A DNA stretch of 64,000 nucleotides from Bacillota bacterium (GCA_037129925.1 JBAXTZ010000002.1:19273-83272), one strand, 5' to 3'; positions 4,071 to 27,386 are shown, numbered from the stretch's first letter. The notes: generated from the letters alone by a model not told the origin. Made by a program: numbers and translations.

Positions 4071-4088
4071 TTACTGCAACAAAAAAAT

Positions 4089-9835: not shown

Positions 9836-9890
9836 AAGATAATTAATCTGCATTAATTATCTTGACGAACAAAATTCTTTACGCTATTAT
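9836..9890 (+). promoter_or_regulatory. Sigma-A-type promoter with overlapping palindromic operator, heading the T1SS/RTX locus
   Basis: TTGACG (9862-9867), 17 bp, TATTAT (9885-9890); perfect inverted repeat aagataattaat-ctgc-attaattatctt (9836-9863). Confidence 0.75.
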
Positions 9891-9906: not shown

Positions 9907-10251
9907 TTGGACGAAGTGATGAATATGTCCATTTTCAAAACGAAACGTGTTCGCGTAGCATTGCTGGCATTGTTTATGTTTGCGCTGTGCGTCGCAGTTG
10001 CGGCAGTCGATGTAGTCGATATTACCGAAATGCTGGATGATGCGTTAGAGGGTCAGTTTGGTTTTCAGTTTGATATAGCCGGTTTTGTCAGCCTGCTCGT
10101 TTTGAGCTGGGCGGTGTTTCTTTGTTTCGTAAAAGCGAATGCGGATATTCTGGCTTCAATCGGCATTGACTCACGCGTTCGTCCGTTCGTACACGGTGTT
10201 CCCGGCAGCGGTAAGTGCGCATTAGTATCCGTCCAGAAATTCAATAATTAA
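9907..10251 (+). CDS. Small hypothetical membrane protein (two hydrophobic segments); true start may be 9919 or 9925
   Basis: ORF directly after the promoter with two hydrophobic stretches; no family recognised. Confidence 0.55.
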   Translation: MDEVMNMSIFKTKRVRVALLALFMFALCVAVAAVDVVDITEMLDDALEGQFGFQFDIAGFVSLLVLSWAVFLCFVKANADILASIGIDSRVRPFVHGVPGSGKCALVSVQKFNN

Positions 10252-10384: not shown

Positions 10385-12514
10385 ATGAACCAACAACCAC
10401 AACCAATCGACAGCGGTCTCGCTGCATTAATCTTAGTTGCCGGATATCACGGTATCGCCGTCGATGCCGGCAAGATCATCCACGAACAGGCGGCGCTGGG
10501 TGAGCGGTTTGATAACCGCAAATTATTGCTCGCGGCGAAGAAAACCGGCTTCAAGGCTAAAACTACTTCGGCGCGTTATGAAAAACTGCCGCAACTGACT
10601 GCGCCGTATATTGCCGAATATAACGGCGAATATATTGTCATCCTCAAAGCCGAAACGGATACCATTGTCTATTTCCGACCCGGATTAACCCAGCCGCTGA
10701 CCATCCCCCGCGACGAATTCGTCCTGCACTGGAACGGCAGATTGATATTGCTCAAACCAATGCTGAAAAACACCGCCGATAAATTCGGTTTCGGCTGGTT
10801 CATCCGCCAGATTATGGAATACAAACGCCATCTGATCGAAGTTATGCTTGCGATGCTGTTCATACAGCTTATGGGGTTGGTGACACCGATCATCACTCAG
10901 GTGGTAATCGATAAGGTGCTGACCCATAACGGGCTGACTACGCTGAATGCATTGATGTTCGGGTTGCTGATCCTAGTCGTCGGTGAAAGCTTCCTCGGTT
11001 CAGCGAAAACCTATCTGTTCGTACATACCGCGAGCAGAATTGATGCGGTACTCGGCGCCAATTTATTCAAACGGCTGATGTCCTTACCGTTAAGATACTT
11101 TGAAATTCGCCGTGCCGGAGATACGGTAGCCAGAGTAAGAGAAATTGAAAACATCCGCCAGTTTCTGACCGGTACGCCGTTATCCACTTTACTTGATGTT
11201 TGTTTCATTTTTGTCTATGTTGCGGTAATGTTTTTCTATAGCGGCGCCTTAACTTGGATGGTTTTAGGCTCATTGCCGCTGTTTGCAATTCTCTCGGGAC
11301 TGGTGACGCCGTTATACAAATCCCGGCTCGAAGAAAAGTTCAACCGCGGCGCTGATAACCAGTCCTATCTGGTTGAAGCGGTAAACGGCATCCAGACAAT
11401 CAAGTCCTTCGCGCTCGAACCGCAGATTCAAAAACGCTGGGACAGTTGTCTTGCCGCCTATATCAAAGCCGGATTCAAGACCGCCAATCTCGCGGGGATT
11501 GCCGGCAGCATCGGCCAAGCCATCCAGAAAACTGCTGACATCGCGGTACTGTGGTATGGCGCAATGCTGGTAATCGACGGCAAACTGACCGTCGGGCAGT
11601 TAATCGCCTTCCGAATGTTATCCTCGCACGTCAGCGGTCCGGTATTAAGATTAGTGCAACTATGGCAGGAATTCCAGCAGGCCGGAGTCTCCTTGAGCCG
11701 CATCGGCGATATCTTCGAAGTCAAACCGGAAAACAACCTTGTCAGCGCACAAACGGCAATGCCAAGTGTTAAAGGCGCGATAACTTTTGACAAAGTGCGG
11801 TTTCGCTACCGCTTCGACGGCCCGGAAATCATCCGCAGCATGAGCTTTGAAATCCAACCCGGCGAAGTCGTCGGCTTTGTCGGCAGGAGCGGTAGCGGAA
11901 AAAGCACCGTCGCCAAGTTAATCCAGCGATTGTACGCGCCCGAATCGGGGCGGATACTGGTCGACGGCGCCGATATCGCCGCAACCGATACCAGTTGGTT
12001 AAGACGCAACATCGGTGTAGTGCTGCAGGAAAACTTTTTATTCAACGGCTCAGTCAGAGACAACATCGCCATTCATAACCCGGCGGCCAGTATCGAACAG
12101 GTAATGGAAGTTGCCAACCTCGCCGGAGCGCATGAATTTATTCTGGAAATGCCTGAAGCCTACGATACCCAGGTCGGCGAAAAAGGCACGGCACTCTCCG
12201 GTGGGCAACGGCAAAGAATTGCGATAGCCAGAGCGCTGCTTAACAACCCCAAAGTATTGATACTCGATGAAGCCACCTCGGCGCTTGATTACGAATCCGA
12301 ACGGATTATTCAGGAAAACCTGAAAAACATCTGCAAAGGAAGAACTGTGATAATCATCGCCCACCGGTTATCGACCTTGAAAGACGCCACCAAGATCATC
12401 ACCGTTGAAAAAGGCGAAATTGCTGAGTCCGGCACCCCGGAAGAATTGTATAACGCCAAAGGAATCTTCTGGCACCTGGCAAGCCAGCAGCGGGGTAGTT
12501 ATGAGATTGTTTAA
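10385..12514 (+). CDS. hlyB: Type I secretion ABC transporter (HlyB family, C39-like domain)
   Basis: N-terminal DSGLAAL C39-like domain without catalytic Cys; TM domain; GRSGSGKST, LSGGQRQR, ILDEATSALD; GGGGAG RBS before ATG 10385. Confidence 0.93.
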   Translation: MNQQPQPIDSGLAALILVAGYHGIAVDAGKIIHEQAALGERFDNRKLLLAAKKTGFKAKTTSARYEKLPQLTAPYIAEYNGEYIVILKAETDTIVYFRPGLTQPLTIPRDEFVLHWNGRLILLKPMLKNTADKFGFGWFIRQIMEYKRHLIEVMLAMLFIQLMGLVTPIITQVVIDKVLTHNGLTTLNALMFGLLILVVGESFLGSAKTYLFVHTASRIDAVLGANLFKRLMSLPLRYFEIRRAGDTVARVREIENIRQFLTGTPLSTLLDVCFIFVYVAVMFFYSGALTWMVLGSLPLFAILSGLVTPLYKSRLEEKFNRGADNQSYLVEAVNGIQTIKSFALEPQIQKRWDSCLAAYIKAGFKTANLAGIAGSIGQAIQKTADIAVLWYGAMLVIDGKLTVGQLIAFRMLSSHVSGPVLRLVQLWQEFQQAGVSLSRIGDIFEVKPENNLVSAQTAMPSVKGAITFDKVRFRYRFDGPEIIRSMSFEIQPGEVVGFVGRSGSGKSTVAKLIQRLYAPESGRILVDGADIAATDTSWLRRNIGVVLQENFLFNGSVRDNIAIHNPAASIEQVMEVANLAGAHEFILEMPEAYDTQVGEKGTALSGGQRQRIAIARALLNNPKVLILDEATSALDYESERIIQENLKNICKGRTVIIIAHRLSTLKDATKIITVEKGEIAESGTPEELYNAKGIFWHLASQQRGSYEIV

Positions 12515-12660: not shown

Positions 12661-13986
12661 ATGAGTTTTTTTACAAAATATCTAAAAATCAGCAGCAAAG
12701 ACATCGAACACGAGTTTCTCCCCGATGCGCTGGAAATCAAAGAAAGCCCGCCGTCACCGGCGGGACGGATAATCATCTGGGGAATCTGCATAATTCTGAC
12801 AATAACCCTGATTTGGTCCTGCATCGCGAAAATCGACGAAATCGCCGTAGCCCGTGGTAAACTCATTCCCGACGGCAAGATCAAAGTCATCCAGTCCGAA
12901 TATGAAGGCGTGATTGTAGCCATCAACGTCGTCGAAGGTCAAAAAGTCAAAGCCGGACAAACCTTGCTCGAACTCGATCCGCTGACTGCTAAGACCGAAT
13001 ACGAAAAAGTCCATGATTCACTGCAAATCGCCAAAGCCGAGAAGCAACAATTGCAGAATGAACTAAGCGGCAAACCGAACGCCGCGAATGGATTGCCGGA
13101 AGAATTGCGAAGTTTGTATGCTAATCTCAGGCAAGCCCGCGAATTGCAATATCAGACCAAGCGCGAAACCTACGCCCATAATATGGAAGATGCCAAAAAC
13201 GGACAGCAAAGCGCCGAGTGGTCGCTGAAAGATTCGAAGCGCCATTATGAAATAATTCTGGTCGAAGAAGCCGACCTCAGATACCTCGTCAAAGAAGGCG
13301 GATTATCCAGAGAAAACTACAACCGCAAAGAACGGGAACTGTTCAGCGCCGAGAATGATCTGGAAACCAAACGCGAAGCGGTGGAACAGCAACACGAAAA
13401 ATATCTCGGCGCGGCAAAAAGCTATGAACTGGTGGAATATGAACGCCAAGCCGAATTGCTGAATGCCACTGCCGAGAAAGAAAAACAAATTATCGAATTA
13501 ACGTCTCAATTTATCAAAGCCAAAAAAGCGCTGGAAATGACCAAGATGACATCGCCGGTGGATGGCGAAGTACACGGACTGGCAGCAACGACCATCGGCG
13601 GTGTGGTTAAACCGGCGGAAGTGCTGATGACCATTGTGCCGGAGAATACCCCGCTGATTATCGAAGCGACCGCAGATAACAAGGACATCGGCTTTATTGA
13701 CGTAAACTACCCGGTGGAAATAAAGTTCGATACCTATCCGTTCCAGCGTTACGGCGTGGTTAAAGGCAAAGTAACCTTCGTCAGCCCGGATGCTATCGAA
13801 GATGAAAAACTCGGGCCGGTGTACAAAATCAAGGTGGCGCTGGATTTGAAGACGATACCCAGAACGATAGAAATCTACCCCGGTATGGCAGGAACAGTAG
13901 AAATCAAGACCAACGAAAAGCGGGTAATCGACTTCTTCCTCGATCCGCTGATCAAGTATGCGGATGAGAGTTTGGGGTTAAGGTAG
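12661..13986 (+). CDS. hlyD: Type I secretion membrane fusion protein (HlyD family)
   Basis: EFLPDALEI..PPSP, single TM, lipoyl-like halves, coiled coil, PFQRYG, PGM...EIKT. Confidence 0.93.
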   Translation: MSFFTKYLKISSKDIEHEFLPDALEIKESPPSPAGRIIIWGICIILTITLIWSCIAKIDEIAVARGKLIPDGKIKVIQSEYEGVIVAINVVEGQKVKAGQTLLELDPLTAKTEYEKVHDSLQIAKAEKQQLQNELSGKPNAANGLPEELRSLYANLRQARELQYQTKRETYAHNMEDAKNGQQSAEWSLKDSKRHYEIILVEEADLRYLVKEGGLSRENYNRKERELFSAENDLETKREAVEQQHEKYLGAAKSYELVEYERQAELLNATAEKEKQIIELTSQFIKAKKALEMTKMTSPVDGEVHGLAATTIGGVVKPAEVLMTIVPENTPLIIEATADNKDIGFIDVNYPVEIKFDTYPFQRYGVVKGKVTFVSPDAIEDEKLGPVYKIKVALDLKTIPRTIEIYPGMAGTVEIKTNEKRVIDFFLDPLIKYADESLGLR

Positions 13987-14036: not shown

Positions 14037-15209
14037 ATGAAAACACTAACAACAAGACTATTGATCGTGGCAATTCTACTCTGCAGCATAGTTTGTGCAG
14101 CGGCACAACCACAGTATGATTTTGCGCAAAACAACAACATGTCGGAATATTACGCCACACAGTACGACAACAGCGGAACCGCCTGGTTACGGGGCGTGGA
14201 GTTAAATGGCATGTTTGACAAAAACAGCCAGAATTACGGAGTAACAGTAATACAACCGTTTTTGGACACAAAAAACGGGTTAACGCATGTGCCATTCTGG
14301 CAGGCAAGTTATACGCGCACAGCCGGTGCAAACTTAAATAGCGCGTTAGATACGGTTAATATCGGTATCGGCTACCGTTTCGTTTCTGCAGTGCGCAGCA
14401 ACATGTACGGCGTGAATTTATTTTACGATAATTGCCTGGACTATTTGCCGGTTGCCGGATTAAATCAGGTTTCGCTGCAACGAATCGGCGCCGGACTGGA
14501 ATATTTTGTCGGGCCGGTCGAAGCGCGTATGAACGGATACTTAGGTTTAGGAAATAACACCCAGACCGCAAGCAACGGCGATATTGTCTCAACCAAAGTA
14601 GTCAACGGATTGGATGGCGCTATCAATACCGATTTTTCTTTCTGGAACGCACCCTGGTTGAAAATAGGTGTGAGCGGATTTTCGAATAATGCTTCAACAA
14701 CTGGTATCACAAACGGATGCAGCGCCACCGCCGCGCTGCAATTAATGCCGCAGTTGAAAGTTGCCGTTGCACAGGATTTTATTAATAACAACACTATTGC
14801 TACAGCGACGATAAACCTGCTGGCGCTGCCGCAACCGGCGTTATTGTTTGCAGATGAATATATAAATGCCAACGCCGAAAAAGATGCCGGATACAAAACA
14901 CTGCTGGCGGTGCAGCGAAACAACAACGTGACTGCTGACGTGAACGTAACCAGGCAAGCTGTTGTTTACCAAGGCTCGCTGGACATAACGGTGACTGATT
15001 CGGCAACCGGGTTGCCGCTTGCGGGCGTGATGGTTGTGTTTAACTCAACCTTGCAAAATACCGGCGCGGACGGTAAGGCAAGCTTCAGCAATATAGCTTA
15101 CGGAAATTATGACTATGTGATAGTCAAATCCGGATACCTATCCCAAAGCAGCAGCTGTACAATCGATTCACCGGCGAAGGTGTTGCCGGTAGCGTTGGTG
15201 GTGCAGTGA
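14037..15209 (+). CDS. Inverse autotransporter (intimin/invasin-like) beta-domain protein with one short Ig-like passenger
   Basis: Signal peptide; NIGIGYR..MYGVNLFYD..QRIGAGLEY..RMNGY barrel pattern; VQRNNNV linker; C-terminal VTDSATGLPLAGV..TGADG..GNYDYVIVKSGY domain. Confidence 0.7.
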   Translation: MKTLTTRLLIVAILLCSIVCAAAQPQYDFAQNNNMSEYYATQYDNSGTAWLRGVELNGMFDKNSQNYGVTVIQPFLDTKNGLTHVPFWQASYTRTAGANLNSALDTVNIGIGYRFVSAVRSNMYGVNLFYDNCLDYLPVAGLNQVSLQRIGAGLEYFVGPVEARMNGYLGLGNNTQTASNGDIVSTKVVNGLDGAINTDFSFWNAPWLKIGVSGFSNNASTTGITNGCSATAALQLMPQLKVAVAQDFINNNTIATATINLLALPQPALLFADEYINANAEKDAGYKTLLAVQRNNNVTADVNVTRQAVVYQGSLDITVTDSATGLPLAGVMVVFNSTLQNTGADGKASFSNIAYGNYDYVIVKSGYLSQSSSCTIDSPAKVLPVALVVQ

Positions 15210-15223: not shown

Positions 15224-15303
15224 GGGTTTAGGCGCAGGTTGTTCTGCTTCTAAACGCGAGAATTGGGAAAAATGAAATGAAGGGTGGTGGTGTTTTTGAG
15301 GGT
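15224..15303 (+). repeat. 80-bp cassette-leading element, copy 1
   Basis: 72/80 identical (manual count) to 18064-18143; contains hairpin GTTTAG-gc-GCAG-loop-CTGC-tt-CTAAAC. Confidence 0.92.
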
Positions 15304-15347
15304 ACAGACTATTAGTATAAGACAAAGTTTTTCGAGGAGGAATTCTG

Positions 15348-16475
15348 ATGACTAAAACAAAGATGTTGCGTTTTACGGCACTGTGGTTACTGATGCTATT
15401 TGTCTTTGCTTTCCAGATACAAGAGAGTAACTGTGAATTAAGCGGTAATGCTTTCGCCAGCTCTATATCTACCGGCGGGTCCAGTCAGGGATTGAATGAT
15501 GATAGTTTGTTTAATTACACGTTTGAAGCAGGTAAGAATAAACTAAAGTCAGGTGATTATGCAGGGGCTATCAATGACTTTACTGCCGCAATAAATTGTG
15601 GTGATGAAAATCAAGATTTGGCTATTGTTTTCTTGAACAGAGGTGCGGCTTATGCGCACTTAGGCAATAATTCAGCTGCTGTTGATGATTATAACAGCAT
15701 GTTGAAATTGCGCCCAAATTCGCCTGAAGCCTACACCAACAGAGGGCTTGCATATCATGAACTTGGCAAAAATGATCTCGCCATCAGCGATTTAAACGAA
15801 GCGGTACGATTAGCTCCGGGTCAATATACAGTGTACACGAACAGAGGTGTTACTTTTGGAGAGATGGGTGAATATGAAAAGGCGATTGATGATTTTAATT
15901 GCGCAATAAAACTCAAAGGTAATTACTATTATAAAGCTTATTGGGGTAGGGCTTTGGCGTACATTGGTAGTGGCAAATATGATTTAGCCTTGTCGGATTT
16001 GAACTTAATTATTGACAATAATTTCAACGATTTCGATGCTAGGTTTCTGCGTGGAGGAGTATATGTAATTAAAGGTGATTATAATCGTGGCATAAGCGCT
16101 CTGTCCGGAGTGGTCAAATATAGCAAAGATAATAAACCGGCGCTGTTTCTTAGGGGAATGACTTATATCGTAGTCGGAAATTACGATAGCGCCGTCGATG
16201 ATTTTGCTGAACTTGTTAGCCAGCATACGATAATTGGCGATGCCCCAATTAATTCCTGTCTAAAACCGATCTTTGATTGGTGTATGCCAAAGGTTTTGAA
16301 TGAACAATTCGAAAAAAACAACTCAAATGCGGAAATTATTTTCATTAGAGGGTTGGTTGAAAACATGCGCGACGAAAAGGAGAAGAGTCTGGCAGATTTG
16401 AATAACGCGGTAAAAATGAAACCTTCACTGGCGAAAAAATTGCCCTGGTGGATAAGACACGAATTGACGAACTGA
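15348..16475 (+). CDS. Exported tetratricopeptide-repeat protein (cassette 1 partner gene)
   Basis: N-terminal basic/hydrophobic signal; repeated AYxNRGxAY...AIxDxxxAIxL TPR units; GAGGAGG RBS. Confidence 0.88.
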   Translation: MTKTKMLRFTALWLLMLFVFAFQIQESNCELSGNAFASSISTGGSSQGLNDDSLFNYTFEAGKNKLKSGDYAGAINDFTAAINCGDENQDLAIVFLNRGAAYAHLGNNSAAVDDYNSMLKLRPNSPEAYTNRGLAYHELGKNDLAISDLNEAVRLAPGQYTVYTNRGVTFGEMGEYEKAIDDFNCAIKLKGNYYYKAYWGRALAYIGSGKYDLALSDLNLIIDNNFNDFDARFLRGGVYVIKGDYNRGISALSGVVKYSKDNKPALFLRGMTYIVVGNYDSAVDDFAELVSQHTIIGDAPINSCLKPIFDWCMPKVLNEQFEKNNSNAEIIFIRGLVENMRDEKEKSLADLNNAVKMKPSLAKKLPWWIRHELTN

Positions 16476-16497
16476 TTTTTTTGGAGGAGTTGAAAAA

Positions 16498-18093
16498 ATG
16501 ACTATTACGAGCGGTGGAAAAATTTACTCAGTAAGACCAATTGATGGAGCTATTGACACAAAAAGAACATTTGACTTTGCTATGGATGGCAATAATTGCA
16601 TACCGTATTATACGGACGAAATGCAGGATATTACACAGTTTCTTAAGGACGCTGGAATTTATAAAGGCGACGTGTTGCCCGAAGCGAAATTTACAATACT
16701 TGAGGGAGAAAATAGTTGGTTCACTGTCGGCAAAGGTGAGTATTATAACGCCGGTGTTGTGATACATGGCGAAACGGACAAGTTCAGTATTGACGCTGGG
16801 ATAGGCGTGAAGGGTGAACTGGTCACGGAATGGTTTGTTGTTCCAAAAGAGCTAAAAATTCAGGGAGTTGGAGGAGAACTCAAGATTTCCTTTCAAACTC
16901 CAATGGATATTTTGGATATCACTAATGCAATTGATTTGTCGAAATTTACACTTGTCGACACAATTTTGAAGATGGGCAATAAATATTGGAATCAAGCGAA
17001 GGAAATTGTTGACAGCTATTTCCCAAATGAAAACCCGCCACAAGTCACCAACCAATTCGAATTCCACGTTGACCCGCTTGCCGGAATCAAAAAAACTGAC
17101 GTAACTGACCCGAATTATTGGAACGGCAGTTTGCTCAATGGCGGCGGATATAACGGCACGGCTAATTTTGAAGTCAATAAAGATATTTTTGACGCAAATG
17201 GCAAGCTGAGCAACTATGTAAATAATCTGATGGCGGGAAATATTACCGGAGGTATTCGTCCAGGCAACGTTAATCCATCCGAAAATTTCTTCGGAATAAA
17301 TTACGAAATATCCGGGAATATAAACTCTTCCAGTCAGCAAGGCAAAAATATTTCGTATGTTGACCCGTTGATATTGGATTTGAACGGCGACGGTGTTCAC
17401 ATGAGCGATTTTGGCTCGAATCCCGTATTCTTCGACGCTGACAACGACGGCAGTCTGGAGCAAACCGGCTGGGTTTCAGCGCAAGATGGCATTGTCGTCA
17501 AAGACTTAAACAATAATGGTATCATCGACAACATCTCCGAGACAATGTCGGAATACTTTGGCGGGACAGCCGGTGTTGACGGTGGCACGAAGCCGTTTAA
17601 GGATGGTTTTGCGGCGTTGGCGTCTTTAGACAGCAACAAGGACGGAAAATTCGACAGCGCTGACGCTGACTGGGGTAAAGTCAAAGTCTGGGTTGACGCC
17701 AACCACGACGGCAAGACCGATGCGGGTGAGCTGAAATCGTTTGAAGAATTGAACATCAAACAGATAAATCTTGCTAATCAGGCGCAGTCCGGGGAAGTCC
17801 GCGACGGTAACGAAGTGCTGGCGCGCGGGACGTATCTGACGACTGACGGTAAGTTACAGGAAGCGTTAGCGGCTAATTTTCTGGCTAATCCGAACGGCCA
17901 TAAGTTCACCCAGAGCGGAACCGGAACGATTGTTGATACGCAGGGAAGCGGAACAATAGCGGCGGTCAAGGCTTATGTTGCCGGAGATGGCGGCGAGACG
18001 GTGGGCGTTGCGGTGAAGAAAGTCAACAACGCCACTGGCGGCGCGGTTATGACTATGGTTTTTGGGTTTAGGCGCAGGTTGGACTGCTTCTAA
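16498..18093 (+). CDS. Truncated RTX-protein cassette: unique 182-aa head plus conserved linker and self-processing module; no RTX tail or secretion signal
   Basis: GGAGG RBS; residues 183-~516 align without gaps to residues 341-~674 of the 2881-aa protein; ORF runs into the 80-bp element and stops there. Confidence 0.85.
   Translation: MTITSGGKIYSVRPIDGAIDTKRTFDFAMDGNNCIPYYTDEMQDITQFLKDAGIYKGDVLPEAKFTILEGENSWFTVGKGEYYNAGVVIHGETDKFSIDAGIGVKGELVTEWFVVPKELKIQGVGGELKISFQTPMDILDITNAIDLSKFTLVDTILKMGNKYWNQAKEIVDSYFPNENPPQVTNQFEFHVDPLAGIKKTDVTDPNYWNGSLLNGGGYNGTANFEVNKDIFDANGKLSNYVNNLMAGNITGGIRPGNVNPSENFFGINYEISGNINSSSQQGKNISYVDPLILDLNGDGVHMSDFGSNPVFFDADNDGSLEQTGWVSAQDGIVVKDLNNNGIIDNISETMSEYFGGTAGVDGGTKPFKDGFAALASLDSNKDGKFDSADADWGKVKVWVDANHDGKTDAGELKSFEELNIKQINLANQAQSGEVRDGNEVLARGTYLTTDGKLQEALAANFLANPNGHKFTQSGTGTIVDTQGSGTIAAVKAYVAGDGGETVGVAVKKVNNATGGAVMTMVFGFRRRLDCF
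17043..18046 (+). repeat. ~1.0-kb direct repeat, copy 1
   Basis: Colinear with 19760-20763 at a constant 2717-bp offset; about 22 amino-acid differences in ~334 codons (manual count). Confidence 0.95.
17362..17907 (+). other. FrpC-type self-processing module (SPM), copy 1; predicted cleavage D289-P290
   Basis: YVDPLILDLNGDG..FD.DNDG...TGWVSAQDG..V.DLNNNGIIDN..GFAAL..LDSN.D..VWVDAN.DG....EL..FEEL.I mirrors the Neisseria FrpC SPM. Confidence 0.85.
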
Positions 18094-18143
18094 ACGCGAG
18101 AATCGAGAATAATGAAATGAAAGGCGGTGGGGTTTTTGAGGGT
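18064..18143 (+). repeat. 80-bp cassette-leading element, copy 2
   Basis: 72/80 identical to 15224-15303; hairpin stem unchanged, loop changed. Confidence 0.92.
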
Positions 18144-18169
18144 GAAGAAAGTGGCAAAGCTATTGAAAA

Positions 18170-18748
18170 ATGGAGGTGAAGTTGAAAGCAATTAATATGG
18201 TCAAACAATGTTTGTCAGTAATTAAAATTAAGTATTTTGTACTTGGAATGTCTCTTTGTTTCATAGCGGGAACGTATTTGGAATTTGATTATAGCAAATA
18301 TGAGATTATCAGAAAATTCGTGGCGATATCAGCACGAATTATCCCCTTTATTTATTGTGTAGGGGAAATATCTAAAGCGCCGCTCAATCAATTGTTTGCA
18401 TCAATTATTAATATCGGTTGTCTATTTATTGCGTTGCTTACGTTTGCAAGAGCTCTGATTAATTTCGATTCAATTTATGAAAAGACATTGTCATATAACT
18501 TCAAGAAGAAAATTATCTACATGATTGGCGCGTTGATTCTCGGAACACTTATCTATACAATTTTGTTCTCTAAATCGGTTTTACTCACTCGTGATTGGAG
18601 GACGGATTATATGATTAATACGACTTTGGGCATGATACTTTATGGCGGCGCACTTTTTTATGGTGGATGGATCATTTTTTTCGACATAGCACAGAACGTG
18701 ATTATTTATACGGTTTACACAATAAGAAGATGGAGGAATAATGGCTGA
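18170..18748 (+). CDS. Hypothetical ~4-TM membrane protein (cassette 2 partner; candidate immunity protein); start may be TTG 18182
   Basis: Four hydrophobic segments, AT-rich; stop overlaps the start of the RTX gene. Confidence 0.75.
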   Translation: MEVKLKAINMVKQCLSVIKIKYFVLGMSLCFIAGTYLEFDYSKYEIIRKFVAISARIIPFIYCVGEISKAPLNQLFASIINIGCLFIALLTFARALINFDSIYEKTLSYNFKKKIIYMIGALILGTLIYTILFSKSVLLTRDWRTDYMINTTLGMILYGGALFYGGWIIFFDIAQNVIIYTVYTIRRWRNNG

Positions 18749-21700
18749 AGAACGTGTATCAAAAATAAAATGGGATGAAAAAATATGGGGTGTTTTTGGC
18801 GCACTTCAAGATGGTTTTGGAGAAGTTCTAAAGAAAAGTATTAATTCAGGTGAGCTAGATGCGCGACTTGCCAAAATCGGGATAACTGCACACTGTAAAG
18901 TGCTGGGTTCCGCGGGAGATTTTATTTCGATTTCTTCTGCGATATATAGTGGTGATCCGGATAAAATTGGCGACGCGATTTTTTCGTTCGTAGGATCTCA
19001 AATTACCAGTCCTGTAGCCGCAGCATGGTTTGCAGCGTATGCATCTAAGAATGGAATCGATCCGATCATTGGCGGCATGGTTGGAGGATATGTAGGCTCA
19101 GAAGCAGGTGCTCAATTCGGATCGCTCACTTGGCAAACTTTATGGAACGGGATTCAATCCGTAGAAGTAACGAGCGAAGGTGGCACAAACATTTTCACCC
19201 GCAAGCAGTTTCAAGAAGTACATATGCCTGGATATAAAGAGAACTATACAATTGATATGTTCAAGAGAGATTTTGGCGCGGTGAACAGCAATAACAATAA
19301 TATATTCATTGAAAACAAGAATCCGTCTGCACCGATTTCGCCAATCGACACCAACCAATATTATGTCAAATACACAGTACCCGCCAACACGCCTTGGAGT
19401 ACTATTGAAGCGCAGTGGGGTGCGGCAAATGTGCAAGGCTCCGAGAGATATGACGGTACAAAATATTATACCGGCAGCGGATATCAGGTCGCAGAGGCCG
19501 GAACCACTATCCTTATACCCTGCTCGCGCGACTATGCTAAACAGCAGGTTAATGCGAGTGGCGGTATAAATATAGCCGCAAGGATTGGAGCAGGCGGAGA
19601 TTTTTCCTGGGTGGCATCGTTGTCGAATAATATTGAAATTACCGGGAAGTTTTACGCAGACAAGACCGGTATTGATCCGAATAATGTCCAGACCGGAACA
19701 GTAATTGACGTTGTAAATAATAAAGATGCAAATATTGGTTGCTATGATCCGAAACTGGGAGTCACCAACCAATTCGAATTTCACGTTGACCCGTTAGCGG
19801 GAATCAAAAAAACTGACGTAACAGACCCGAATTATTGGAACGGCAGTTTGCTCAACGGCGGCGGATATAACGGCACGGCTAATTTTGAAGTCAATAAAGA
19901 TATTTTTGACGCAAATGGCAAGCTGAGTAACTATGTCAATAATCTGATGGCTGGTAATATAACTGGCGGTGTTAGGCCGGGCAACGTTAATACGTCAGAA
20001 AATTTCTTCGGAATAAATTACGAAATAACCGGGAATATAAACTCCTCCAGTCAGCAAGGTAAAAATATTTCATATGTTGACCCGTTGATATTGGATTTAA
20101 ATAATGACGGTGTTCACATGAGCGATTTCGGCTCGAATCCGGTTTTCTTTGATGCCGACAACGACGGTAGTCTGGAACAGACCGGCTGGGTGTCAGCGCA
20201 AGACGGTGTCGTGGTCAAGGATTTGAATAACAACGGAATAATCGATAATATCTCCGAAACAATGTCGGAATATTTCGGCGGCGTTGCAGGAACAGACGGC
20301 GGGACGAAGCCGTTCAAAGACGGATTTGCGGCGTTGAAATCGCTTGATTCTAATGGTGACAATGTTTTTGACAATAAAGATGCCGACTGGGGCAAGGTAA
20401 AAGTTTGGGTTGACGCCAACCATGACGGCAAGACCGATGCCGGGGAACTGAAATCGTTTGAAGAATTGAATATCAAACAAATCAACCTTGCCAATCAGGC
20501 ACAGTCCGGCGAGGTGCGCGACGGCAACGAGGTACTGGCGCGCGGGACGTATCTGACGACCGATGGCAAATTGCAGGAAGCGTTGGCAGCTAATTTTCTC
20601 GCCAATCCGCTCGGACATAAGTTTGAAAAGAGCGGTACCGGAACGATAATCGATACCCAGGGTGGTAACAAGATTGCTGCGGTAAAAGCCTACGTTGCCG
20701 GAGACGGCGGCGAAACGGTTGATGTGGCTGTCAAAGGTGTGAACAACGCCACCGGCGGCGCGGGTAACGACACTTTGATTGGCGACGCGACCAGCAACTG
20801 GCTGGCAGGCGGCGCGGGCAGCGATACGTTTAACGCCGGAGCCGGGGACGATGTGCTGTTGATTGACGCCGAAGACAAGCAGGAAAACATCCACGGCGGC
20901 GCCGGGATGGATACGGTAATTGCTATCGGTGACAAGGGTATTACGCTGAACATGAGCGCTGCCGAAGTGGAAATCTTTCAGGGCAACCGCGGCGATGATG
21001 TAATTGTCGGCGGCGGCAGCAGCTCGGTATTTATCGCCGGTGGCGACGGCAACGATATCCTCATTGGCGGCGCAGCCAATGACGCGATTAACGGCGAGAA
21101 CGACAACGATATGATCGACGGCGGCGCCGGAAACGACATCCTCCGCGGCGGCCGCGGCCGGGATACTATCTACGGCGGCAAAGGCGACGACTATATCGAC
21201 GGCGGTCAGGACGATGATGCGCTGTATGGCGGCGCCGGTAACGACGTATTGCGCGGCGCAGCCGGGGATGACGTTATCGACGGCGGCGACGGAACCGATA
21301 TTCTCGAACTGTCCGGCAACCTTTCTGAGTACCGGATATTGCGCACCGCTACCGGCATCTGGATCAGCGACACCGTCGCCGGACGCGACGGCACCGATTT
21401 TGTAAAAAACGTTGAAAAAGCCAACTTCAAGGACGTAAGTTTGGTAGACATCCCGTCCAATACCAGTGACGGGCTGGAAAATCCGCTGCCGGTTAAAGAT
21501 ATTATCAAGACTGACAAAGACGGCAAAGCTTTCGACCACACTACCGCGCACTACATTTCCCAAGCTCAGCTGTTGCAAAATGATGTGGATTGGCAAAACG
21601 ACAAGCTGACGATTACCGAAGTAACCGACGCCGTCGGCGGAACGGTAAAATTAACCGAAGCCGGGGATATCCTGTTCACCCCTGACGCCAGTTTCAACGG

Positions 21701-24700
21701 CGTTATGAGCTTCAAATACACCGTCAAAGACGCCAAAGGCAATATTGCCGCGCAGGTAATTAGCGGCGCTGGCGACAAAGCGACGATGCGAGCGGCAGTG
21801 TACCTGAAAACACCGGAACTGCCGGTTGATCCGCTGGTTACCGATCAGTGGTACCTGAACGATGCCAATATCCTGCCGGTCTGGAAAGACTATACCGGTA
21901 AAGGAATACGCATCGGCCAGTTTGAACCGGGCGGTTCCTACGCCACGACCAAAGAAATATTTGATTACCGCCACTACGATTTGAAAAACAATGTCGATGC
22001 CGACTGGCTGGCAGGTAATACCGCCGGTAACATCGCCGGAGAAGGCGCAGACGGCAAATTCAGCAACCATGCGACATTGGTAGCCGGAGTAATGGTCGCG
22101 GAAAACAACGGCCAGGGTGGTGTAGGTGTCGCCTATGATGCCAAAATTGGCGGACATTTTATCGATGCCAAAACAATCGGCGTCGATCTTGCCAAAATGA
22201 AAAACTACGATGTCGTCAACAACAGCTGGGGCATTACGCCTAGTTTTGCCGGATCATTTTTGAATGACGGTTCAATCGTCGTACCATATGCCGGAGCGGC
22301 AATTGAAGGCCGGGGCGGACTGGGAACAGTAATTGTCACATCGGGCGGAAACGACTGCGAGCAAGGCGGTAACGCCAACTACAGTAACGCAACTAATATT
22401 CGTACTGCTATAGCCATCGGTGCGGTGAACGCCAACGCCGATCTTAGCACCCTGCAAGTCGGCGACAAACCGTTCTCCAATCCCGGCGCTAACCTGCTGG
22501 TATCGGCGCCCGGTTCGAATATCACTTCGACTTCGCGGATGATAACGACCGACGACGGCTCGACTTTTGGCGCGGATAACGCCGTATCCCAGGGTACCAG
22601 TTTCGCCGCACCGATAATCTCCGGTATCGTCGCGCTGATGCTGCAAGCCAATCCGAAACTCGGCTACCGCGATGTTCAGGAAATTCTAGCGGTGTCAGCA
22701 CGCAAATTTGCAACAAATGATAATAATGAATGGCACGATAACAGCACCGGTAATTGGAATGGCGGCGGTATGCATTATTCTGACAATTACGGTTTCGGTA
22801 TGGTCGATGCCCGCGCGGCAGTGCGGCTGGCGGAAACCTGGACAGCGCAGCAAACCTTCGCCAACGAAGTACACGTGTTTACCGAAGCGAAAAACGTCAA
22901 CGCCGCGATTACCGACGGCAACAGCATAACCAGCTCGGTAACGCTGGCTAACTGCGATATGCGCATCGAACATGTCGAGGTCAGGGTGCACCTTACCCAT
23001 GACCGCCCGGGCGACCTGATCATCAAGTTGGTCAGGCCAGACGGCACCGAATCAATCCTGATGAACCGGCCCGGCGTGAGCGCAGCAAACTCCAACGGCG
23101 ATACCAGGTTCAATAACTCGGATGAACTGAATTTCGTATTCACAACTACCCACGACTGGGGCGAGAGCCCGGCAGGTGAGTGGAGGCTGGTGGTTACTGA
23201 TGCTGCCACCGGTAAAACCGGAATACTGAAAGACTGGGATATAACCGCCTACGGCAAATCGGGCGCTTTGACCAATGATACATACTATTACACCGACGAA
23301 TACGAAAACCTCGCCGGAACACCCGGACACAATGCGACACTGAACGATACCGACGGCGGCAACGACACCATCAACATTGCAGCGTTATCCAAAGGCGCGA
23401 TCGTTAATATCTCGACCGGCGCCGCGACAGTAGCCGGTAAAGCCCTGACCATCCAGAACCCCGGCACAATTGAAAACATCGTCGGTGGCGAAGGCAGCGA
23501 CACGCTGGTCGGCAACGCGGTCAACAACGTCCTCGCCGGTGGCCGCGGCAATGATACCCTGAGTGGCGAAGGTGGGAATGACGCGTTGTTCGGCGGCAAA
23601 GGCAACAATATCCTGATTGGCGGCAGCGAAAACGACAGCTTCATTATCGAACGCAACGACAATTGCTGCGACACCGTTGCTGATTTTGCTATCGGCGCTG
23701 ACAAACTGGTACTGTCCGGTTTTGACAAGGCAATACTTGCGACGATGACGGTTAGCCAGACCGGCGCCGATACCCGGCTGGCATTCAGTAACGGCCAGTC
23801 GATATTGTTGAAGAACATAACCGCAACAAGCTTCGGTACGACGCTTGCCAATAATCTGAATGTTTGCGTTTCGGCGGAGGGTGTTACTGTTAATGACATC
23901 CTCAACAGTGAGGCTTATGCCTTTGGAAGCGAGAAGACTGAACTAATTTCATATGATGGACTAGGTCAGCAACTACGCTTTTGGGGTGGCGGAAATACGG
24001 ACATTGTTTTTGGAACCAAAAAAAACGATGTGTTGATTGGCGGAACCGGCGACGATATTATCCACGGCGGTGACGGCGATGATGTGATTTATCTGCAGGG
24101 CGACAATCTTATGAGCAGATATAAATATACCGACGAACATGGCAAGGAGCGAATTGAGAATGCCGGAGCATACGGCGAAGCAGGAGCCGACCGGTTTGTG
24201 TTGAAAGAAGGCGGCGGCCTGCAAAATGCGATTTGGGATTTCGAAATCGGCAAAAACGGCGAGGTGATTGACGTTGTCGATTTATCGGAAATTCCCAGCG
24301 CGACCGATTTCTCCCAACTGAGCTTTTCAAAACTTACCTGTAACGAAATGATATTTACTGTGGTTTCGATCAAGACCGACCCGCTGCGCCGCAGCGTTGC
24401 TTTGCGAAATATCAGTCAGGAAGCTTTGAATGAACATCATTTCATATACCGTCCAGGCAACACTCCAGGATTGACGAATGTAACTGGCACTGATTTAGAC
24501 GATAATGATACCGACAGCAACGGAGATAGGATAATCGAAAAACGATTAGTCGGTGACGCTGGAGGCAACGTTCTCGACGGCAAAAAAGGCGCGGATATCA
24601 TGGAAGGCCGTACCGGCGACGATACCTATTATGTCGATAACAAGAACGACAAGGTTATCGAGCTTGCCAATGGCGGCTATGATACTGTCAGAACGACCAT

Positions 24701-27386
24701 CAGTCTGACTAAAGAGGAAAACGGTCTAATAATGGCTGACAACGTCGAGCAACTAGAACTGCTGGGCAAAGATAATCTTAATGCCACCGGTAATGAACTG
24801 AATAACCGCATCGTCGGCAACGACGGTAATAACATCATCGACGGCGGCGCGGGTATCGACACCATGCTCGGCGGCAAGGGGAATGATACCTATATCATCG
24901 ACAACGGTTTTGACCGGGTGTTCGAAGCCGACAGCGAAGGCATCGATACAGTACAGGCCTCGATGTCCTATACGCTCGGCGCTAACTTCGAAAACCTGAC
25001 CCTGATTGGAACCGATGCCATCAATGCGACCGGTAACGAACTTAACAATATCCTCACCGGCAACGACGGCGACAACAAACTCGACGGTCAGATTGGCGCC
25101 GACACGATGGCAGGCGGCAAAGGCAACGATATTTATTTCGTCGATAACGCTGGTGACAAAGTTGTTGAGAATGCCGGTGAAGGTACGGATACCATTATTT
25201 CGTCGGTTGATTATGTGCTGGCAAGCGATGTTGAAAATCTGGTGCTTATTGGCGCCGCGAAAACTGCGTATGGTAATGGTTTTGATAACCAAATAATTGG
25301 TAATGAACTGGATAATAGAATTCTCGGAGGGAAAGGAGATGATCAGCTTTCAGGTGGTCTGGGAAAAGATCAGTATTATTTCAGTTATGATGGCAACGAC
25401 ACTATTTATGAGAAGTACGACGCGGTCCAAGGAAACGATGAAGACGCAATAATTTTTTTGGGAAACAAAATAGATAGTATTGTTTTTTATAGGACTATAA
25501 CAGGCGATTTGATAATAACTTACAAGGACAACTATGCATCTGCATCAAATTCGATAACAGTTAAAAATCATTTTTCTAACGCTGGCGCTCAGATTGAAAA
25601 AGTACAGTTTAACGACAGTACTTTTGTCGACAAAAAATTTATCGAGGCCAATTGTGTTTACGTGGAATCTTTTACAGGAACAAGCGGTAACGATAATTTG
25701 ACAGGAACAGCGGGTAAAGATGTGTTGATTGGACAAGACGGCGCGGATATCATGGACGGGAAAGAAGGCGTCGATGTGATGATCGGTGGTAAAGGTGATG
25801 ACGTCTATTATGTCGATAACGTTGGTGATTCTGTCGGTGAAAAAACAGACGAAGGTTACGACAAGGTGTTTTCGTCGGTTAGCTATTCGATTGGAAATGG
25901 GCTTGAAGACCTTGCGCTTACAGGAACGGATGATATTAATGGCACTGGCAATTTTCTTTCCAATATTATTACCGGAAATTCCGGGAAAAACATCATTGAC
26001 GGTGGGGGAGGATATGGCGCTGATTCACTGTTTGGCTTTGCTGGAAGCGATATTTTGATCGGCGGAGACGGCAACGACCATCTTGACGGCGGAACAGGCG
26101 ATGATGAAATGCGCGGAAAAGCCGGAGATGATACTTATGTAGTCGACAGCATAAATGATAAGATTATCGAAGTTGCCAACGAGGGGAATGACTTAGTTGA
26201 GACTTTAATAAGCTATTCATTAGCTGCAAACCTAGAGGGACTAAAGCTAACAGGGTTAGGGAATATCAATGGAACGGGGAATGAACTCGACAATTATATT
26301 AACGGCAATTCAGGCGACAACACAATTGATGGCGGTATGGGTAACGACAATTTATACGGAAAAGAAGGAAACGATACTTTGATCGGCGGAGCCGCGCGCG
26401 ACTGGTTGGACGGAGGCGCTGGTGAGGATAAAATGTATGGCGGTTCCGGCAATGATTATTATCTTGTGGATAATACAGGCGATCTGGTTTTCGAAAATCA
26501 AAACGAAGGAACTGATACCGTCTTCTCGTCGGTTGATTATACACTTGGGAATAATTTGGAAAATCTTCAGATCAGTGGAGACGCAAGAGTCGCTATTGGC
26601 AACGAACTGGACAATATATTGACCGGAAACAATTGCGGCAATATACTGGTTGGCGGAGCCGGAAATGATACTCTGATCGGTGGAGATGGAGCGGACGAGA
26701 TGCGTGGCGGAACCGGGAGCGACACCTATTGGGCGGATCGAAGCGATACCGTAATAGAAAAAGCGGGAGAGGGTTATGACATAGTCGTTGCTTCTGAAAA
26801 TTATACGCTTACAGCCAATGTTGAGGAACTTCAACTGACAGCAAATTTTAACGTTGACGGTACCGGAAACGAGCTTTCGAATATGATTTATGGTAATTAT
26901 CATGACAATGTGATTGACGGACGCGACGGTGACGACAATCTTAGGGGGAACGAAGGGAATGACACACTCATTGGAGGGAAAGGACACGACCTTTTAGTGG
27001 GTGGAGCAGATAACGATACATATATTTTCAACATAGGCGATGGGCAGGATTCAGTTGCAGAATACTCAGGAACTAATGACCTTGCTAAATTTGGCGCTAC
27101 TGATTTACAGTTGATGATTTCTAGAGTTAATGAAAATTTGATAATATCAACAGGGGGAACAACTGACAAAGTTGAGATATGGTATTGGTACCAAGGCGAC
27201 GGCAACAAAATTGAGACAATCGAAGCCGGTAACGGAAAACGGTTATTATCAACGCAAATTGACAGCCTTATGGCGGCTATGGTTCAGCTGCAAGCACAAA
27301 AAGGCATGTCCTGGAATGAGTTGATTAGTTCTGCGCCGAATGAGACGCAGACGGTACTCAATCAGTTCTGGACGGAAAAGAAGTAA
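18741..27386 (+). CDS. Giant T1SS-secreted RTX protein: glycine-zipper head, SPM, RTX repeats, cadherin-like domain, S8 subtilase plus P-domain, RTX tail
   Basis: Many GGxGxDxLx nonapeptides; NHATLVAG, GTSFAAP and EHVEVRVHLTH..PGDL..GEW.L motifs; RTX-type C-terminal secretion region. Confidence 0.93.
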   Translation: MAEERVSKIKWDEKIWGVFGALQDGFGEVLKKSINSGELDARLAKIGITAHCKVLGSAGDFISISSAIYSGDPDKIGDAIFSFVGSQITSPVAAAWFAAYASKNGIDPIIGGMVGGYVGSEAGAQFGSLTWQTLWNGIQSVEVTSEGGTNIFTRKQFQEVHMPGYKENYTIDMFKRDFGAVNSNNNNIFIENKNPSAPISPIDTNQYYVKYTVPANTPWSTIEAQWGAANVQGSERYDGTKYYTGSGYQVAEAGTTILIPCSRDYAKQQVNASGGINIAARIGAGGDFSWVASLSNNIEITGKFYADKTGIDPNNVQTGTVIDVVNNKDANIGCYDPKLGVTNQFEFHVDPLAGIKKTDVTDPNYWNGSLLNGGGYNGTANFEVNKDIFDANGKLSNYVNNLMAGNITGGVRPGNVNTSENFFGINYEITGNINSSSQQGKNISYVDPLILDLNNDGVHMSDFGSNPVFFDADNDGSLEQTGWVSAQDGVVVKDLNNNGIIDNISETMSEYFGGVAGTDGGTKPFKDGFAALKSLDSNGDNVFDNKDADWGKVKVWVDANHDGKTDAGELKSFEELNIKQINLANQAQSGEVRDGNEVLARGTYLTTDGKLQEALAANFLANPLGHKFEKSGTGTIIDTQGGNKIAAVKAYVAGDGGETVDVAVKGVNNATGGAGNDTLIGDATSNWLAGGAGSDTFNAGAGDDVLLIDAEDKQENIHGGAGMDTVIAIGDKGITLNMSAAEVEIFQGNRGDDVIVGGGSSSVFIAGGDGNDILIGGAANDAINGENDNDMIDGGAGNDILRGGRGRDTIYGGKGDDYIDGGQDDDALYGGAGNDVLRGAAGDDVIDGGDGTDILELSGNLSEYRILRTATGIWISDTVAGRDGTDFVKNVEKANFKDVSLVDIPSNTSDGLENPLPVKDIIKTDKDGKAFDHTTAHYISQAQLLQNDVDWQNDKLTITEVTDAVGGTVKLTEAGDILFTPDASFNGVMSFKYTVKDAKGNIAAQVISGAGDKATMRAAVYLKTPELPVDPLVTDQWYLNDANILPVWKDYTGKGIRIGQFEPGGSYATTKEIFDYRHYDLKNNVDADWLAGNTAGNIAGEGADGKFSNHATLVAGVMVAENNGQGGVGVAYDAKIGGHFIDAKTIGVDLAKMKNYDVVNNSWGITPSFAGSFLNDGSIVVPYAGAAIEGRGGLGTVIVTSGGNDCEQGGNANYSNATNIRTAIAIGAVNANADLSTLQVGDKPFSNPGANLLVSAPGSNITSTSRMITTDDGSTFGADNAVSQGTSFAAPIISGIVALMLQANPKLGYRDVQEILAVSARKFATNDNNEWHDNSTGNWNGGGMHYSDNYGFGMVDARAAVRLAETWTAQQTFANEVHVFTEAKNVNAAITDGNSITSSVTLANCDMRIEHVEVRVHLTHDRPGDLIIKLVRPDGTESILMNRPGVSAANSNGDTRFNNSDELNFVFTTTHDWGESPAGEWRLVVTDAATGKTGILKDWDITAYGKSGALTNDTYYYTDEYENLAGTPGHNATLNDTDGGNDTINIAALSKGAIVNISTGAATVAGKALTIQNPGTIENIVGGEGSDTLVGNAVNNVLAGGRGNDTLSGEGGNDALFGGKGNNILIGGSENDSFIIERNDNCCDTVADFAIGADKLVLSGFDKAILATMTVSQTGADTRLAFSNGQSILLKNITATSFGTTLANNLNVCVSAEGVTVNDILNSEAYAFGSEKTELISYDGLGQQLRFWGGGNTDIVFGTKKNDVLIGGTGDDIIHGGDGDDVIYLQGDNLMSRYKYTDEHGKERIENAGAYGEAGADRFVLKEGGGLQNAIWDFEIGKNGEVIDVVDLSEIPSATDFSQLSFSKLTCNEMIFTVVSIKTDPLRRSVALRNISQEALNEHHFIYRPGNTPGLTNVTGTDLDDNDTDSNGDRIIEKRLVGDAGGNVLDGKKGADIMEGRTGDDTYYVDNKNDKVIELANGGYDTVRTTISLTKEENGLIMADNVEQLELLGKDNLNATGNELNNRIVGNDGNNIIDGGAGIDTMLGGKGNDTYIIDNGFDRVFEADSEGIDTVQASMSYTLGANFENLTLIGTDAINATGNELNNILTGNDGDNKLDGQIGADTMAGGKGNDIYFVDNAGDKVVENAGEGTDTIISSVDYVLASDVENLVLIGAAKTAYGNGFDNQIIGNELDNRILGGKGDDQLSGGLGKDQYYFSYDGNDTIYEKYDAVQGNDEDAIIFLGNKIDSIVFYRTITGDLIITYKDNYASASNSITVKNHFSNAGAQIEKVQFNDSTFVDKKFIEANCVYVESFTGTSGNDNLTGTAGKDVLIGQDGADIMDGKEGVDVMIGGKGDDVYYVDNVGDSVGEKTDEGYDKVFSSVSYSIGNGLEDLALTGTDDINGTGNFLSNIITGNSGKNIIDGGGGYGADSLFGFAGSDILIGGDGNDHLDGGTGDDEMRGKAGDDTYVVDSINDKIIEVANEGNDLVETLISYSLAANLEGLKLTGLGNINGTGNELDNYINGNSGDNTIDGGMGNDNLYGKEGNDTLIGGAARDWLDGGAGEDKMYGGSGNDYYLVDNTGDLVFENQNEGTDTVFSSVDYTLGNNLENLQISGDARVAIGNELDNILTGNNCGNILVGGAGNDTLIGGDGADEMRGGTGSDTYWADRSDTVIEKAGEGYDIVVASENYTLTANVEELQLTANFNVDGTGNELSNMIYGNYHDNVIDGRDGDDNLRGNEGNDTLIGGKGHDLLVGGADNDTYIFNIGDGQDSVAEYSGTNDLAKFGATDLQLMISRVNENLIISTGGTTDKVEIWYWYQGDGNKIETIEAGNGKRLLSTQIDSLMAAMVQLQAQKGMSWNELISSAPNETQTVLNQFWTEKK
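19760..20763 (+). repeat. ~1.0-kb direct repeat, copy 2
   Basis: Colinear with 17043-18046. Confidence 0.95.
20079..20624 (+). other. FrpC-type self-processing module (SPM), copy 2; predicted cleavage D447-P448
   Basis: YVDPLILDLNNDG and the same downstream Ca-binding motifs as copy 1. Confidence 0.85.

Follow-up and report, generated by a model that had tools for sequence, protein, structure and literature searches.

The island described here lies in a 64,000-nucleotide (nt) stretch of a Bacillota bacterium (GCA_037129925.1 JBAXTZ010000002.1:19273-83272), hereafter the window, and all coordinates of the locus are positions in this stretch. Between positions 15224 and 27386 two tandem units are found with the same order of parts, that is, a short element A, a partner gene X, a variable N-terminal head N and a conserved block B. 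The locus is probably an island for type I secretion, with a substrate in which a conserved carrier bears an exchangeable cassette at its N-terminus. Block B harbours a self-processing module (SPM) of the kind known from FrpC. The two units comprise the following features, with lengths given in amino acids (aa).

15224..15308, + strand: element A1, intergenic and hairpin-bearing, which opens cassette 1.
15348..16475, + strand: X1, partner gene of head 1, for an exported TPR protein of 375 aa (Pfam TPR families) that has a single hydrophobic segment at the N-terminus, candidate immunity gene.
16498..18093, + strand: orphan effector 5′ cassette of 531 aa with head 1 (16498-17043), linker (17044-17361), Asp289-Pro290 (17362-17367), SPM match (17365-17859) and the end of B at 18046.
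18064..18148, + strand: element A2, 17 nt past the end of B1, with the stop codon of the orphan inside.
18170..18748, + strand: X2, candidate immunity gene for a protein of 192 aa with 4-5 transmembrane (TM) segments, sharing 8 nt with the effector start.
18741..19760, + strand: head 2, residues 1-340 of the 2881-aa protein, with a triple GxxxG glycine zipper in the N-terminal ~135 aa.
19761..20763, + strand: block B2 with linker (residues 341-446), Asp447-Pro448 (20079-20084), SPM match (20082-20576) and spacer to the first RTX repeat.
20764..27386, + strand: carrier body with RTX blocks, Cadherin_5 (21528-21755), Peptidase_S8 (21960-22730), P-domain (22965-23246) and more RTX (Pfam, NCBIfam).

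The A elements are 85 nt long and 88% identical at a spacing of 2840 bp (80 nt at 90% with blastn). The B blocks (17043-18049 and 19760-20766) agree in 83.2% of 1009 nt (blastn) at a spacing of 2717 bp, and their proteins are identical in 312 of 334 residues (93%). About 1 kb at 83% identity is far beyond chance. The heads N1 (182 aa) and N2 (340 aa) have no similarity to each other, nor does X1 have any to X2 (blastp, E ≤ 1e-3). In both units the homology sets in at VTNQFEFH and in frame. The orphan open reading frame (ORF) departs from the B homology at NNATGGA and, after 17 nt, runs into A2 where it stops; it has neither RTX repeats nor a secretion signal. Beyond B, RTX repeats follow in unit 2 only, where the ORF 18741-27386 codes for head 2, a 106-aa linker, the SPM and a long RTX body. 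A preliminary description of the window had already listed the two units, the duplicated element A, the unrelated partner genes and heads, the sharp in-frame junction and the RTX body confined to unit 2, and all these features hold. It had taken X2 for a 4-TM protein; a Kyte-Doolittle scan gives five hydrophobic segments of which two are marginal, thus four to five TM segments. Block B as a conserved region of about 1 kb likewise stands, but the module inside it had been missed.

The SPM was recognized by the match of block B to the FrpC SPM chains 6sjw (E = 9.9e-31) and 6sjx (E = 2.9e-30). In both copies the first matching residue is the proline of the Asp-Pro bond which is cleaved in FrpC, and the scissile bond corresponds to Asp289-Pro290 in the orphan and to Asp447-Pro448 in the full protein. 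Block B is therefore ordered as a linker of 106 aa, the Asp-Pro bond, the SPM and a spacer ending at the first RTX repeat. In the alignment with the FrpC module both structural tryptophans and three EF-hand-like calcium loops match well, and for the calcium loop beside the cut site the match is partial (DLDGDGIE in FrpC, DLNGDGVH here). In FrpC, the tryptophans W451 and W519 make up the folding core of the module (PMC7078468). The motif DP[LI]xLDL is kept in all 11 cassettes of the genus (see below), and both tryptophans are kept in every cassette extending that far; the truncated L033a and the cassette L037b at a contig end stop short of the second one. The full protein thus carries, as do the SPM-bearing RTX proteins FrpC and ApxIVA, a domain like FrpC 415-591 preceded by Asp-Pro. 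RTX nonapeptide repeats are located C-terminally and genes for an exporter and a fusion protein are adjacent, so that type I export is predicted.

With the module and an intact Asp-Pro bond in both B copies, the head is probably clipped off the carrier after type I secretion, and the SPM would supply the release mechanism. Once the protein is exported, calcium would fold the SPM and the bond Asp447-Pro448 would be cleaved. This would free a fragment of 447 aa, the head plus the linker, whose C-terminus would be a reactive aspartyl anhydride like the one measured in FrpC. SPM fusions are in use as a tool for protein ligation (PMC12538545). SPM proteins with quite different N-terminal parts were also seen in an alphaproteobacterial metagenome-assembled genome of Dongia (L011, 8735-10000) and in the cyanobacterium Leptothoe (L013, 7529-10000). 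One has a Hint/Vint-like stretch and the other SdrD_B together with weak matches to the thioester domain TED below the cut-off, which suggests that the SPM also serves cargo that is not toxin-like.

The genus is represented by the window's genome and its one congener. Together they hold 11 cassettes at seven loci, including the two cassettes of the window (W1 and W2). At the other loci of the genus the heads measure 126-192 aa. Tandem GxxxG zippers occur in four of the 11 heads, head 2 among them, and hydrophobic helices are predicted in five, including L032a, L033a, L033b and the zipper-bearing L035. The X proteins have 4-7 hydrophobic segments in ten of the 11 cassettes, X1 being the exception. 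Heads and X proteins co-vary in three pairs: L034 and L037a (X 78%, head 75.5%), L036 and W2 (X 25%, E = 1.7e-4; head 29% over the first 170 aa, E = 1.9e-14), and L033b with L034/L037a. Orphans are found in four instances (W1, L032a, L033a, L037a), the latter three upstream of a second cassette and cut at different points of the SPM. Element A has two copies in the window's genome and none in the congener, and Rfam has no match to the window between 9 and 29 kb nor to six related loci. At the other loci of the genus each X gene is preceded by a conserved element of about 200-330 nt peculiar to these loci, which is repeated between the orphan and the next cassette and is thus analogous to A, yet different in sequence. 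Exporter genes of the genus that are about 90% identical on the DNA level precede entirely different cassettes. We also considered an integron-like cassette mechanism and dropped it, as no recombinase is present in the flanks of the island and element A is not of general occurrence.

Block B finds its closest full-length relatives in Pseudomonas (50-53% over all 334 residues), with a match in 60 of 401 Pseudomonas species genomes. We examined 45 Pseudomonas loci. In 32 of them, with 33 cassettes, the Asp-Pro motif is located 241-383 aa from the ORF start; the other 13 (L093, L101-L106, L108-L113) have no Asp-Pro motif in an ORF of the span examined and were set aside. The usual gene order is a TolC-like gene, the exporter, the fusion protein, one to ten small ORFs and the effector. 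The nearest small ORF ends at most 20 nt from the effector start in 20 of the 33 cassettes and has at least one hydrophobic segment in 27. The heads fall into six clusters, or eight groups after sub-clustering, and the linker before the cleavage site is conserved in all. The nearest X family goes by the head group (H1 with x0 in 6/6, sub2 with x2 in 6/6, sub3 with x1 in 13/14 and H3 with x3 in 2/2). Over all head groups with at least two members, 27 of 30 cassettes carry the commonest X of their group. Among these families x0 is a DUF5625 protein of which 10 of 17 copies pass a crude lipobox pattern, and even a comparison of profiles shows no relation between x1 and x2.

A tree was calculated from the 230 residues after the cut site, omitting L099_H0 as too short. 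On this tree the eight head groups need 15 changes (minimum 7, mean of shuffled assignments 17.6), a number reached or undercut in 5 of 200 shuffles. Well-supported sister carriers have unrelated heads in two instances (L007/L010 and L081/L082), and each time the X gene goes with the head. One sub2 head is nested among H1 carriers and is likewise accompanied by its X gene. The layout of the window recurs exactly in L099, which has x1, an orphan of 452 aa, x2 and the full gene, with 523 nt common to orphan and full gene at 97.9% identity. In L008, two degraded orphan heads lie between X paralogues. Several loci retain X genes of a family whose head is missing (L007 x3, L075 x0, L078 x2, L087 x0 three times). 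The last of these loci, from Pseudomonas G637, has ten small ORFs upstream of a single effector (2380-7992), mostly alternating x0 and x2, with two ORFs of 96 aa among them, one in the head-fragment cluster x4. The array is reminiscent of those of orphan immunity genes in other competition systems.

Within the window's class, 12 of 401 genomes have a match, the window's own included, and two of the best-matching ones were examined. L040 has an orphan head like Pseudomonas H1 (27-29%, E = 1e-7 to 1e-9), followed by a gene for an RDD-family membrane protein and the full effector. L041 combines an RTX fragment with a 7-TM gene and the full effector. In the loci found with block B in the JGI metagenomes the gene order is the same in 11 of 11. 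Heads are thus exchanged between carriers, the X gene travels with the head and orphans accumulate upstream. As a test, the preliminary description had proposed that the heads should be numerous and diverse and that the X gene should co-vary with its head, and this is what we find in the genus and in Pseudomonas, two unrelated lineages.

Much of this has parallels in known systems. FrpC, FrpA and ApxIVA are type I secreted RTX proteins with an internal SPM which cleaves an Asp-Pro bond. FrpD is encoded upstream of FrpC and binds it (PMC3034196). In the frpD-frpC pair, which the preliminary description had already cited, the partner gene is located immediately upstream and FrpD binds an N-terminal fragment; an upstream gene is present in every cassette studied here. 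FrpA and FrpC have a common carrier with unrelated N-termini, which was ascribed to foreign DNA at the 5′ end (PMC3034196); N-terminal variability was elsewhere put down to possible immune pressure (PMC5472700). There are also differences. The X proteins show no sequence similarity to FrpD, as judged from two Pseudomonas X-family profiles, one x0 sequence and Pfam scans, and unlike FrpD those of the genus are mostly polytopic membrane proteins. The portions of the FrpC literature covered describe neither upstream orphans nor X arrays nor a strict co-variation of head and X. Finally, the host here is a freshwater bacterium, whereas Neisseria meningitidis is a host-associated pathogen.

By description, Smlt3024/Smlt3025 of Stenotrophomonas maltophilia can be set beside the window as well, since an effector domain akin to RTX N-termini is encoded there with its immunity gene upstream. 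Smlt3024 is an effector of a type IV secretion system which slows the growth of E. coli from the periplasm, and its immunity protein has an FrpD-like fold (PMC6759196). It is similar to the N-terminal ends of 221 larger proteins, and all except six of these have RTX motifs or related calcium-binding domains (PMC6759196). These homologues may already include Pseudomonas proteins like those surveyed here. The same authors hypothesized in 2019 that FrpC is an antibacterial effector of a type I secretion system (T1SS) and FrpD its immunity protein (PMC6759196). In contrast to the proteins studied here, Smlt3024 is delivered by type IV secretion with its C-terminal XVIPCD and has no SPM. We searched for standalone relatives of Smlt3024 and found 11 short proteins, most of which match mainly the linker; these may be orphans or assembly fragments. 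Two short Pseudomonas-like proteins lose similarity in the region where the window's orphan departs from block B, P0008 right after the NNATGG motif and P0012 some nine residues further on, within the first RTX repeat. Breaks may occur preferentially where the first RTX repeat starts, and both sequences could also be assembly fragments. Some Smlt3024-like RTX proteins carry S8, P-domain and cadherin-like domains (PMC6759196), the same extras as the window's carrier at 21528-23246.

With contact-dependent inhibition (CDI, CdiA-CT/CdiI), Rhs and MafB systems the cassettes share a conserved delivery part, a sharply bounded variable part, an adjacent co-varying gene, a short conserved junction motif and displaced orphan cassettes that could recombine with the main gene. 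The junction motif here is F-x-[LF], kept in 11 of 11 aligned sequences. Recombination of orphans has precedent in Rhs and CDI. In our loci unrelated variable domains are exchanged on a conserved delivery region, down to unrelated heads on near-identical carriers, the adjacent gene co-varies (27 of 30 cassettes in Pseudomonas, three pairs in the genus), and orphan cassettes are found by the main gene (W1, L032a, L033a, L037a, L099, two in L008, L040). A C-terminal toxin with downstream immunity gene and orphans is not found; instead the polarity is reversed with the variable part at the N-terminus and X genes and orphans upstream. The secretion signal is C-terminal, so that the polymorphic-toxin architecture is inverted as a whole. 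The predicted export is by a T1SS, and release would be brought about by a calcium-triggered self-cleaving module in place of processing at the target cell. Polymorphic toxins are defined by C-terminal toxin domains, in a paper which does not mention FrpC in the portion covered (PMC3482391). The loci described here would work like polymorphic toxins and yet fall outside this definition.

Two further groups are alike in being large T1SS RTX proteins. MARTX proteins carry effector modules, but these are internal and released inside host cells by a cysteine protease domain, and no such domain was found by Pfam and NCBIfam scans of the window protein. RTX bacteriocins (rhizobiocins), likened here by description, exist with uncharacterised mechanism (PMC3034196), and toxin domains fused N-terminally to RTX repeats have been noted (PMC12419801). 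The novelty supposed in the preliminary description is accordingly reduced, since the unrelated N-termini of FrpA and FrpC, the binding of FrpD and the effector/immunity hypothesis are in print. In a literature search that left out subscription journals and supplements we found nothing on an SPM joined to polymorphic toxins, nor on DUF5625, upstream orphan cassettes or head-X co-variation, and clip-and-link and bacteriocins are treated together in only one review among the literature searched.

The locus is best described as a polymorphic effector system in mirror image, with an RTX carrier that probably clips itself; it extends a known kind and does not constitute a new category. As a mirror-image polymorphic effector locus it had been proposed in the preliminary description, and the genetics, namely head exchange, co-variation of X and recurring upstream orphans, support this. 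We infer roles as toxin, immunity protein and reactivable reserve for head, X protein and orphan, respectively. The heads would be antibacterial toxins, head 2 being probably membrane-active given its glycine zipper, and the X proteins would be the cognate immunity proteins. This reading draws on the polymorphic-toxin-like genetics, the membrane or lipoprotein nature of the partners, the headless X genes, the glycine zippers and the precedent of Smlt3024. In particular, X genes kept without their head family fit immunity better than a role as chaperone or anchor.

Several observations weigh against this interpretation. Neither the heads nor the X proteins of the window match a known toxin or immunity family. 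Head 2 has no match among 1.84 billion representatives and head 1 has one relative, with none in the JGI metagenomes and none among longer proteins; with next to no relatives their function is judged from context alone. Our model has no explanation for the route of the clipped head into the target cell. FrpC and ApxIVA have been published as proteins of host-cell adhesion (PMC7078468, PMC5472700). The co-variation has exceptions: L074 and L082 share a head group and differ in the nearest X, L095 deviates, and in the genus the head pairs L033a/L035 and L032a/L036 are partly similar with undetectable similarity of X. X1, as a TPR protein, is unlike the other ten X proteins of the genus. The Pseudomonas loci come from related species, therefore the counts overstate independence. 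With its SPM complete and its frame intact, the orphan might have a function of its own. Lastly, no deletion joints are found in the contigs of four runs, though contigs are blind to rare forms.

Searches for the nature of the heads gave few leads. ESM returned weak ones (0.83 and 0.88, with the LysM and glycine-zipper leads of head 2 at 0.83); a LysM-like segment is also seen by eye after the glycine-zipper part of head 2. For the orphan protein, PF26745 is listed as a precomputed annotation, a family outside the Pfam set scanned here. PDB sequence searches with one x0 protein, one H1 head and the x1 and x2 profiles gave nothing meaningful, and the H1 heads gave nothing consistent against Pfam at E ≤ 10. 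The invariant His39 and Cys119 of the H1 heads leave the impression, by eye only, of a His/Cys hydrolase. The X protein of L032a has a sub-threshold Rce1-like/CPBP match (E = 0.014) which is too weak to use.

Alternatively, the protein could be a clip-and-link adhesin in the classical FrpC/FrpD sense, with the heads as variable modules for binding which are attached covalently to surfaces or other cells and the X proteins as anchors or receptors on the producer. The SPM homology together with the upstream partner gene matches frpD-frpC, the carrier has a cadherin-like domain, and deletion of the SPM in ApxIVA attenuated virulence (PMC7078468). However, ten of the 11 X proteins of the genus are, by prediction, polytopic in the membrane and not surface lipoproteins, X genes outlast their head family, which is hard to explain for an anchor, several heads have glycine zippers or hydrophobic hairpins, and the organism stems from lake-water metagenomes. 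We regard this explanation as unlikely. It is also rather unlikely that the SPM-RTX protein is a general release carrier for mixed cargo, with X proteins as cargo-specific helpers and the orphan as a product of decay after cassette replacement. The great diversity of the heads, which are without toxin signatures, would agree with such a carrier, as would the report that any protein may stand N-terminal to the SPM (PMC12538545) and the clear degradation of several orphans such as the L008 fragments and L033a. But the orphan of the window is intact with a complete SPM, and the X families, which range from lipoproteins to 7-TM proteins, are strictly head-specific and occur in tandem arrays of up to ten copies, a pattern typical of immunity genes and unlike helpers.

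That the tandem is an incidental duplication or an assembly artefact is most improbable. The genome is a metagenome assembly of 146 contigs, and related loci are broken by repeats. The junction from B1 to A2 is, however, bridged with 0 differences by Logan contigs of three runs from three studies (run X1, record 7, 17181-19853; run X2, record 14, 17954-18496; run X3, record 20, 17680-18236), thus the tandem is real; the same layout is moreover found in other loci, genera and phyla. Run X1 may be the source sample of the genome. The contig of run X3 is perfect over 17680-18236, and the roughly 200 nt upstream differ yet are still SPM-like, a hint that B1 in this population may be a variant or a mosaic. 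With a dS (synonymous substitutions per site) of 1.09, a dN (nonsynonymous) of 0.057 and a dN/dS of 0.053, the copies are too far diverged to stem from a recent duplication or from a collapsed repeat. B1 and B2 have consequently diverged long ago under purifying selection, and unit 1 is better viewed as a displaced cassette, that is, as a juxtaposed diverged allele, than as a fresh duplication in place.

For the polymorphic effector locus we suggest that the tandem arose when a diverged cassette arrived by an illegitimate join on the left and a homologous crossover on the right. The left join (the end of B1, 17 nt and A2) looks illegitimate. The G+C content is 0.34-0.44 in the variable parts and 0.48-0.50 in B and the RTX body. 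The orphan would be a silent reserve: recombination between B1 and B2 would fuse head 1 in frame to the carrier and delete 2717 bp including X2 and head 2. Such a deletion had been proposed in the preliminary description. Its geometry is right: the blocks are collinear and in frame, and stretches of 71, 32 and 30 nt without a difference between them would permit homologous recombination. The deleted form was not met in the contigs. The proposed deletion of 2840 bp between the A elements agrees with their spacing, but with a longest identical run of 20 nt they are a poor substrate. No RNA datasets are listed as holding the locus.

We tentatively extend this picture to the SPM-RTX proteins as a whole, for which it is possible, at somewhat less than even chances, that they are widespread mirror-image polymorphic toxin systems across phyla, FrpC/FrpD among them. 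The RTX body would serve only as export handle, self-cleavage would release an antibacterial head armed with an anhydride, and immunity genes and silent cassettes would be kept upstream. If this is true, the anhydride could tether the released head covalently to the target surface, and interbacterial competition would answer the three-decade puzzle of the role of the Frp proteins. Two literatures that stand apart in the papers searched are joined here, that on the self-processing module and clip-and-link and that on polymorphic toxins and bacteriocins. The clip-and-link module gains a plausible natural job in releasing exchangeable heads from a type I carrier, and the FrpC/FrpD hypothesis of 2019 becomes testable with many natural head-X pairs. 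The loci further yield a list of head families, so far uncharacterised, and their cognate partners as well as natural junction rules for SPM fusions, and they point to an apparently under-described way of building variable bacterial weapons.

The cassettes of the window are preceded by the remainder of the island:

9919..10251, + strand: gene for a small protein with two hydrophobic segments at the left edge of the island (tblastn 88-90% to small ORFs opening L032, L035 and L037).
10385..12514, + strand: T1SS ABC exporter with an N-terminal C39-like domain (Pfam ABC_membrane, ABC_tran, Peptidase_C39 with E = 1e-14).
12661..13986, + strand: presumed HlyD-type membrane fusion protein (ORF and sequence; 89-91% nt identity to L032/L034).
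14037..15209, + strand: exported beta-barrel-like protein of 390 aa with IAT_beta (Pfam, E = 2.5e-13) and a CarboxypepD_reg-like domain.

The exporter gene is 88-91% identical on the nt level to those of L032 and L034. By eye, its C39-like domain has a serine at the presumed position of the catalytic cysteine of C39, and the following gene is taken, from its position and sequence, to code for a HlyD-type fusion protein. No TolC-like gene is found in the window's island. The gene of the IAT_beta protein, between the fusion protein gene and cassette 1, is present only here among the genus loci examined. The carrier contains 18 RTX stretches (Pfam HemolysinCabind, E = 9e-95), and its C-terminal tail is common to a 1068-aa paralogue of L035. 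The island is flanked by smc on one side and by rplS-uppS-cdsA-dxr on the other. The genome codes for LpxC and three proteins with SLH domains, and Spo0A was not found in it; judged by these markers the host is diderm with an envelope of non-proteobacterial type. The label diderm Firmicutes in the preliminary description goes further than these markers.

The first gene of the island, with a promoter-like site ahead of it (9862-9890), codes for a protein of about 110 aa which has no Pfam family. Its relatives open the islands L032, L035 and L037, including loci that no longer have exporter genes. In L037 (G000:C35), a remnant of 72 aa at 7962-8180, identical to the C-terminus of the window's fusion protein, stands before the cassette array, and this island without exporter presumably depends on the exporter of the window.

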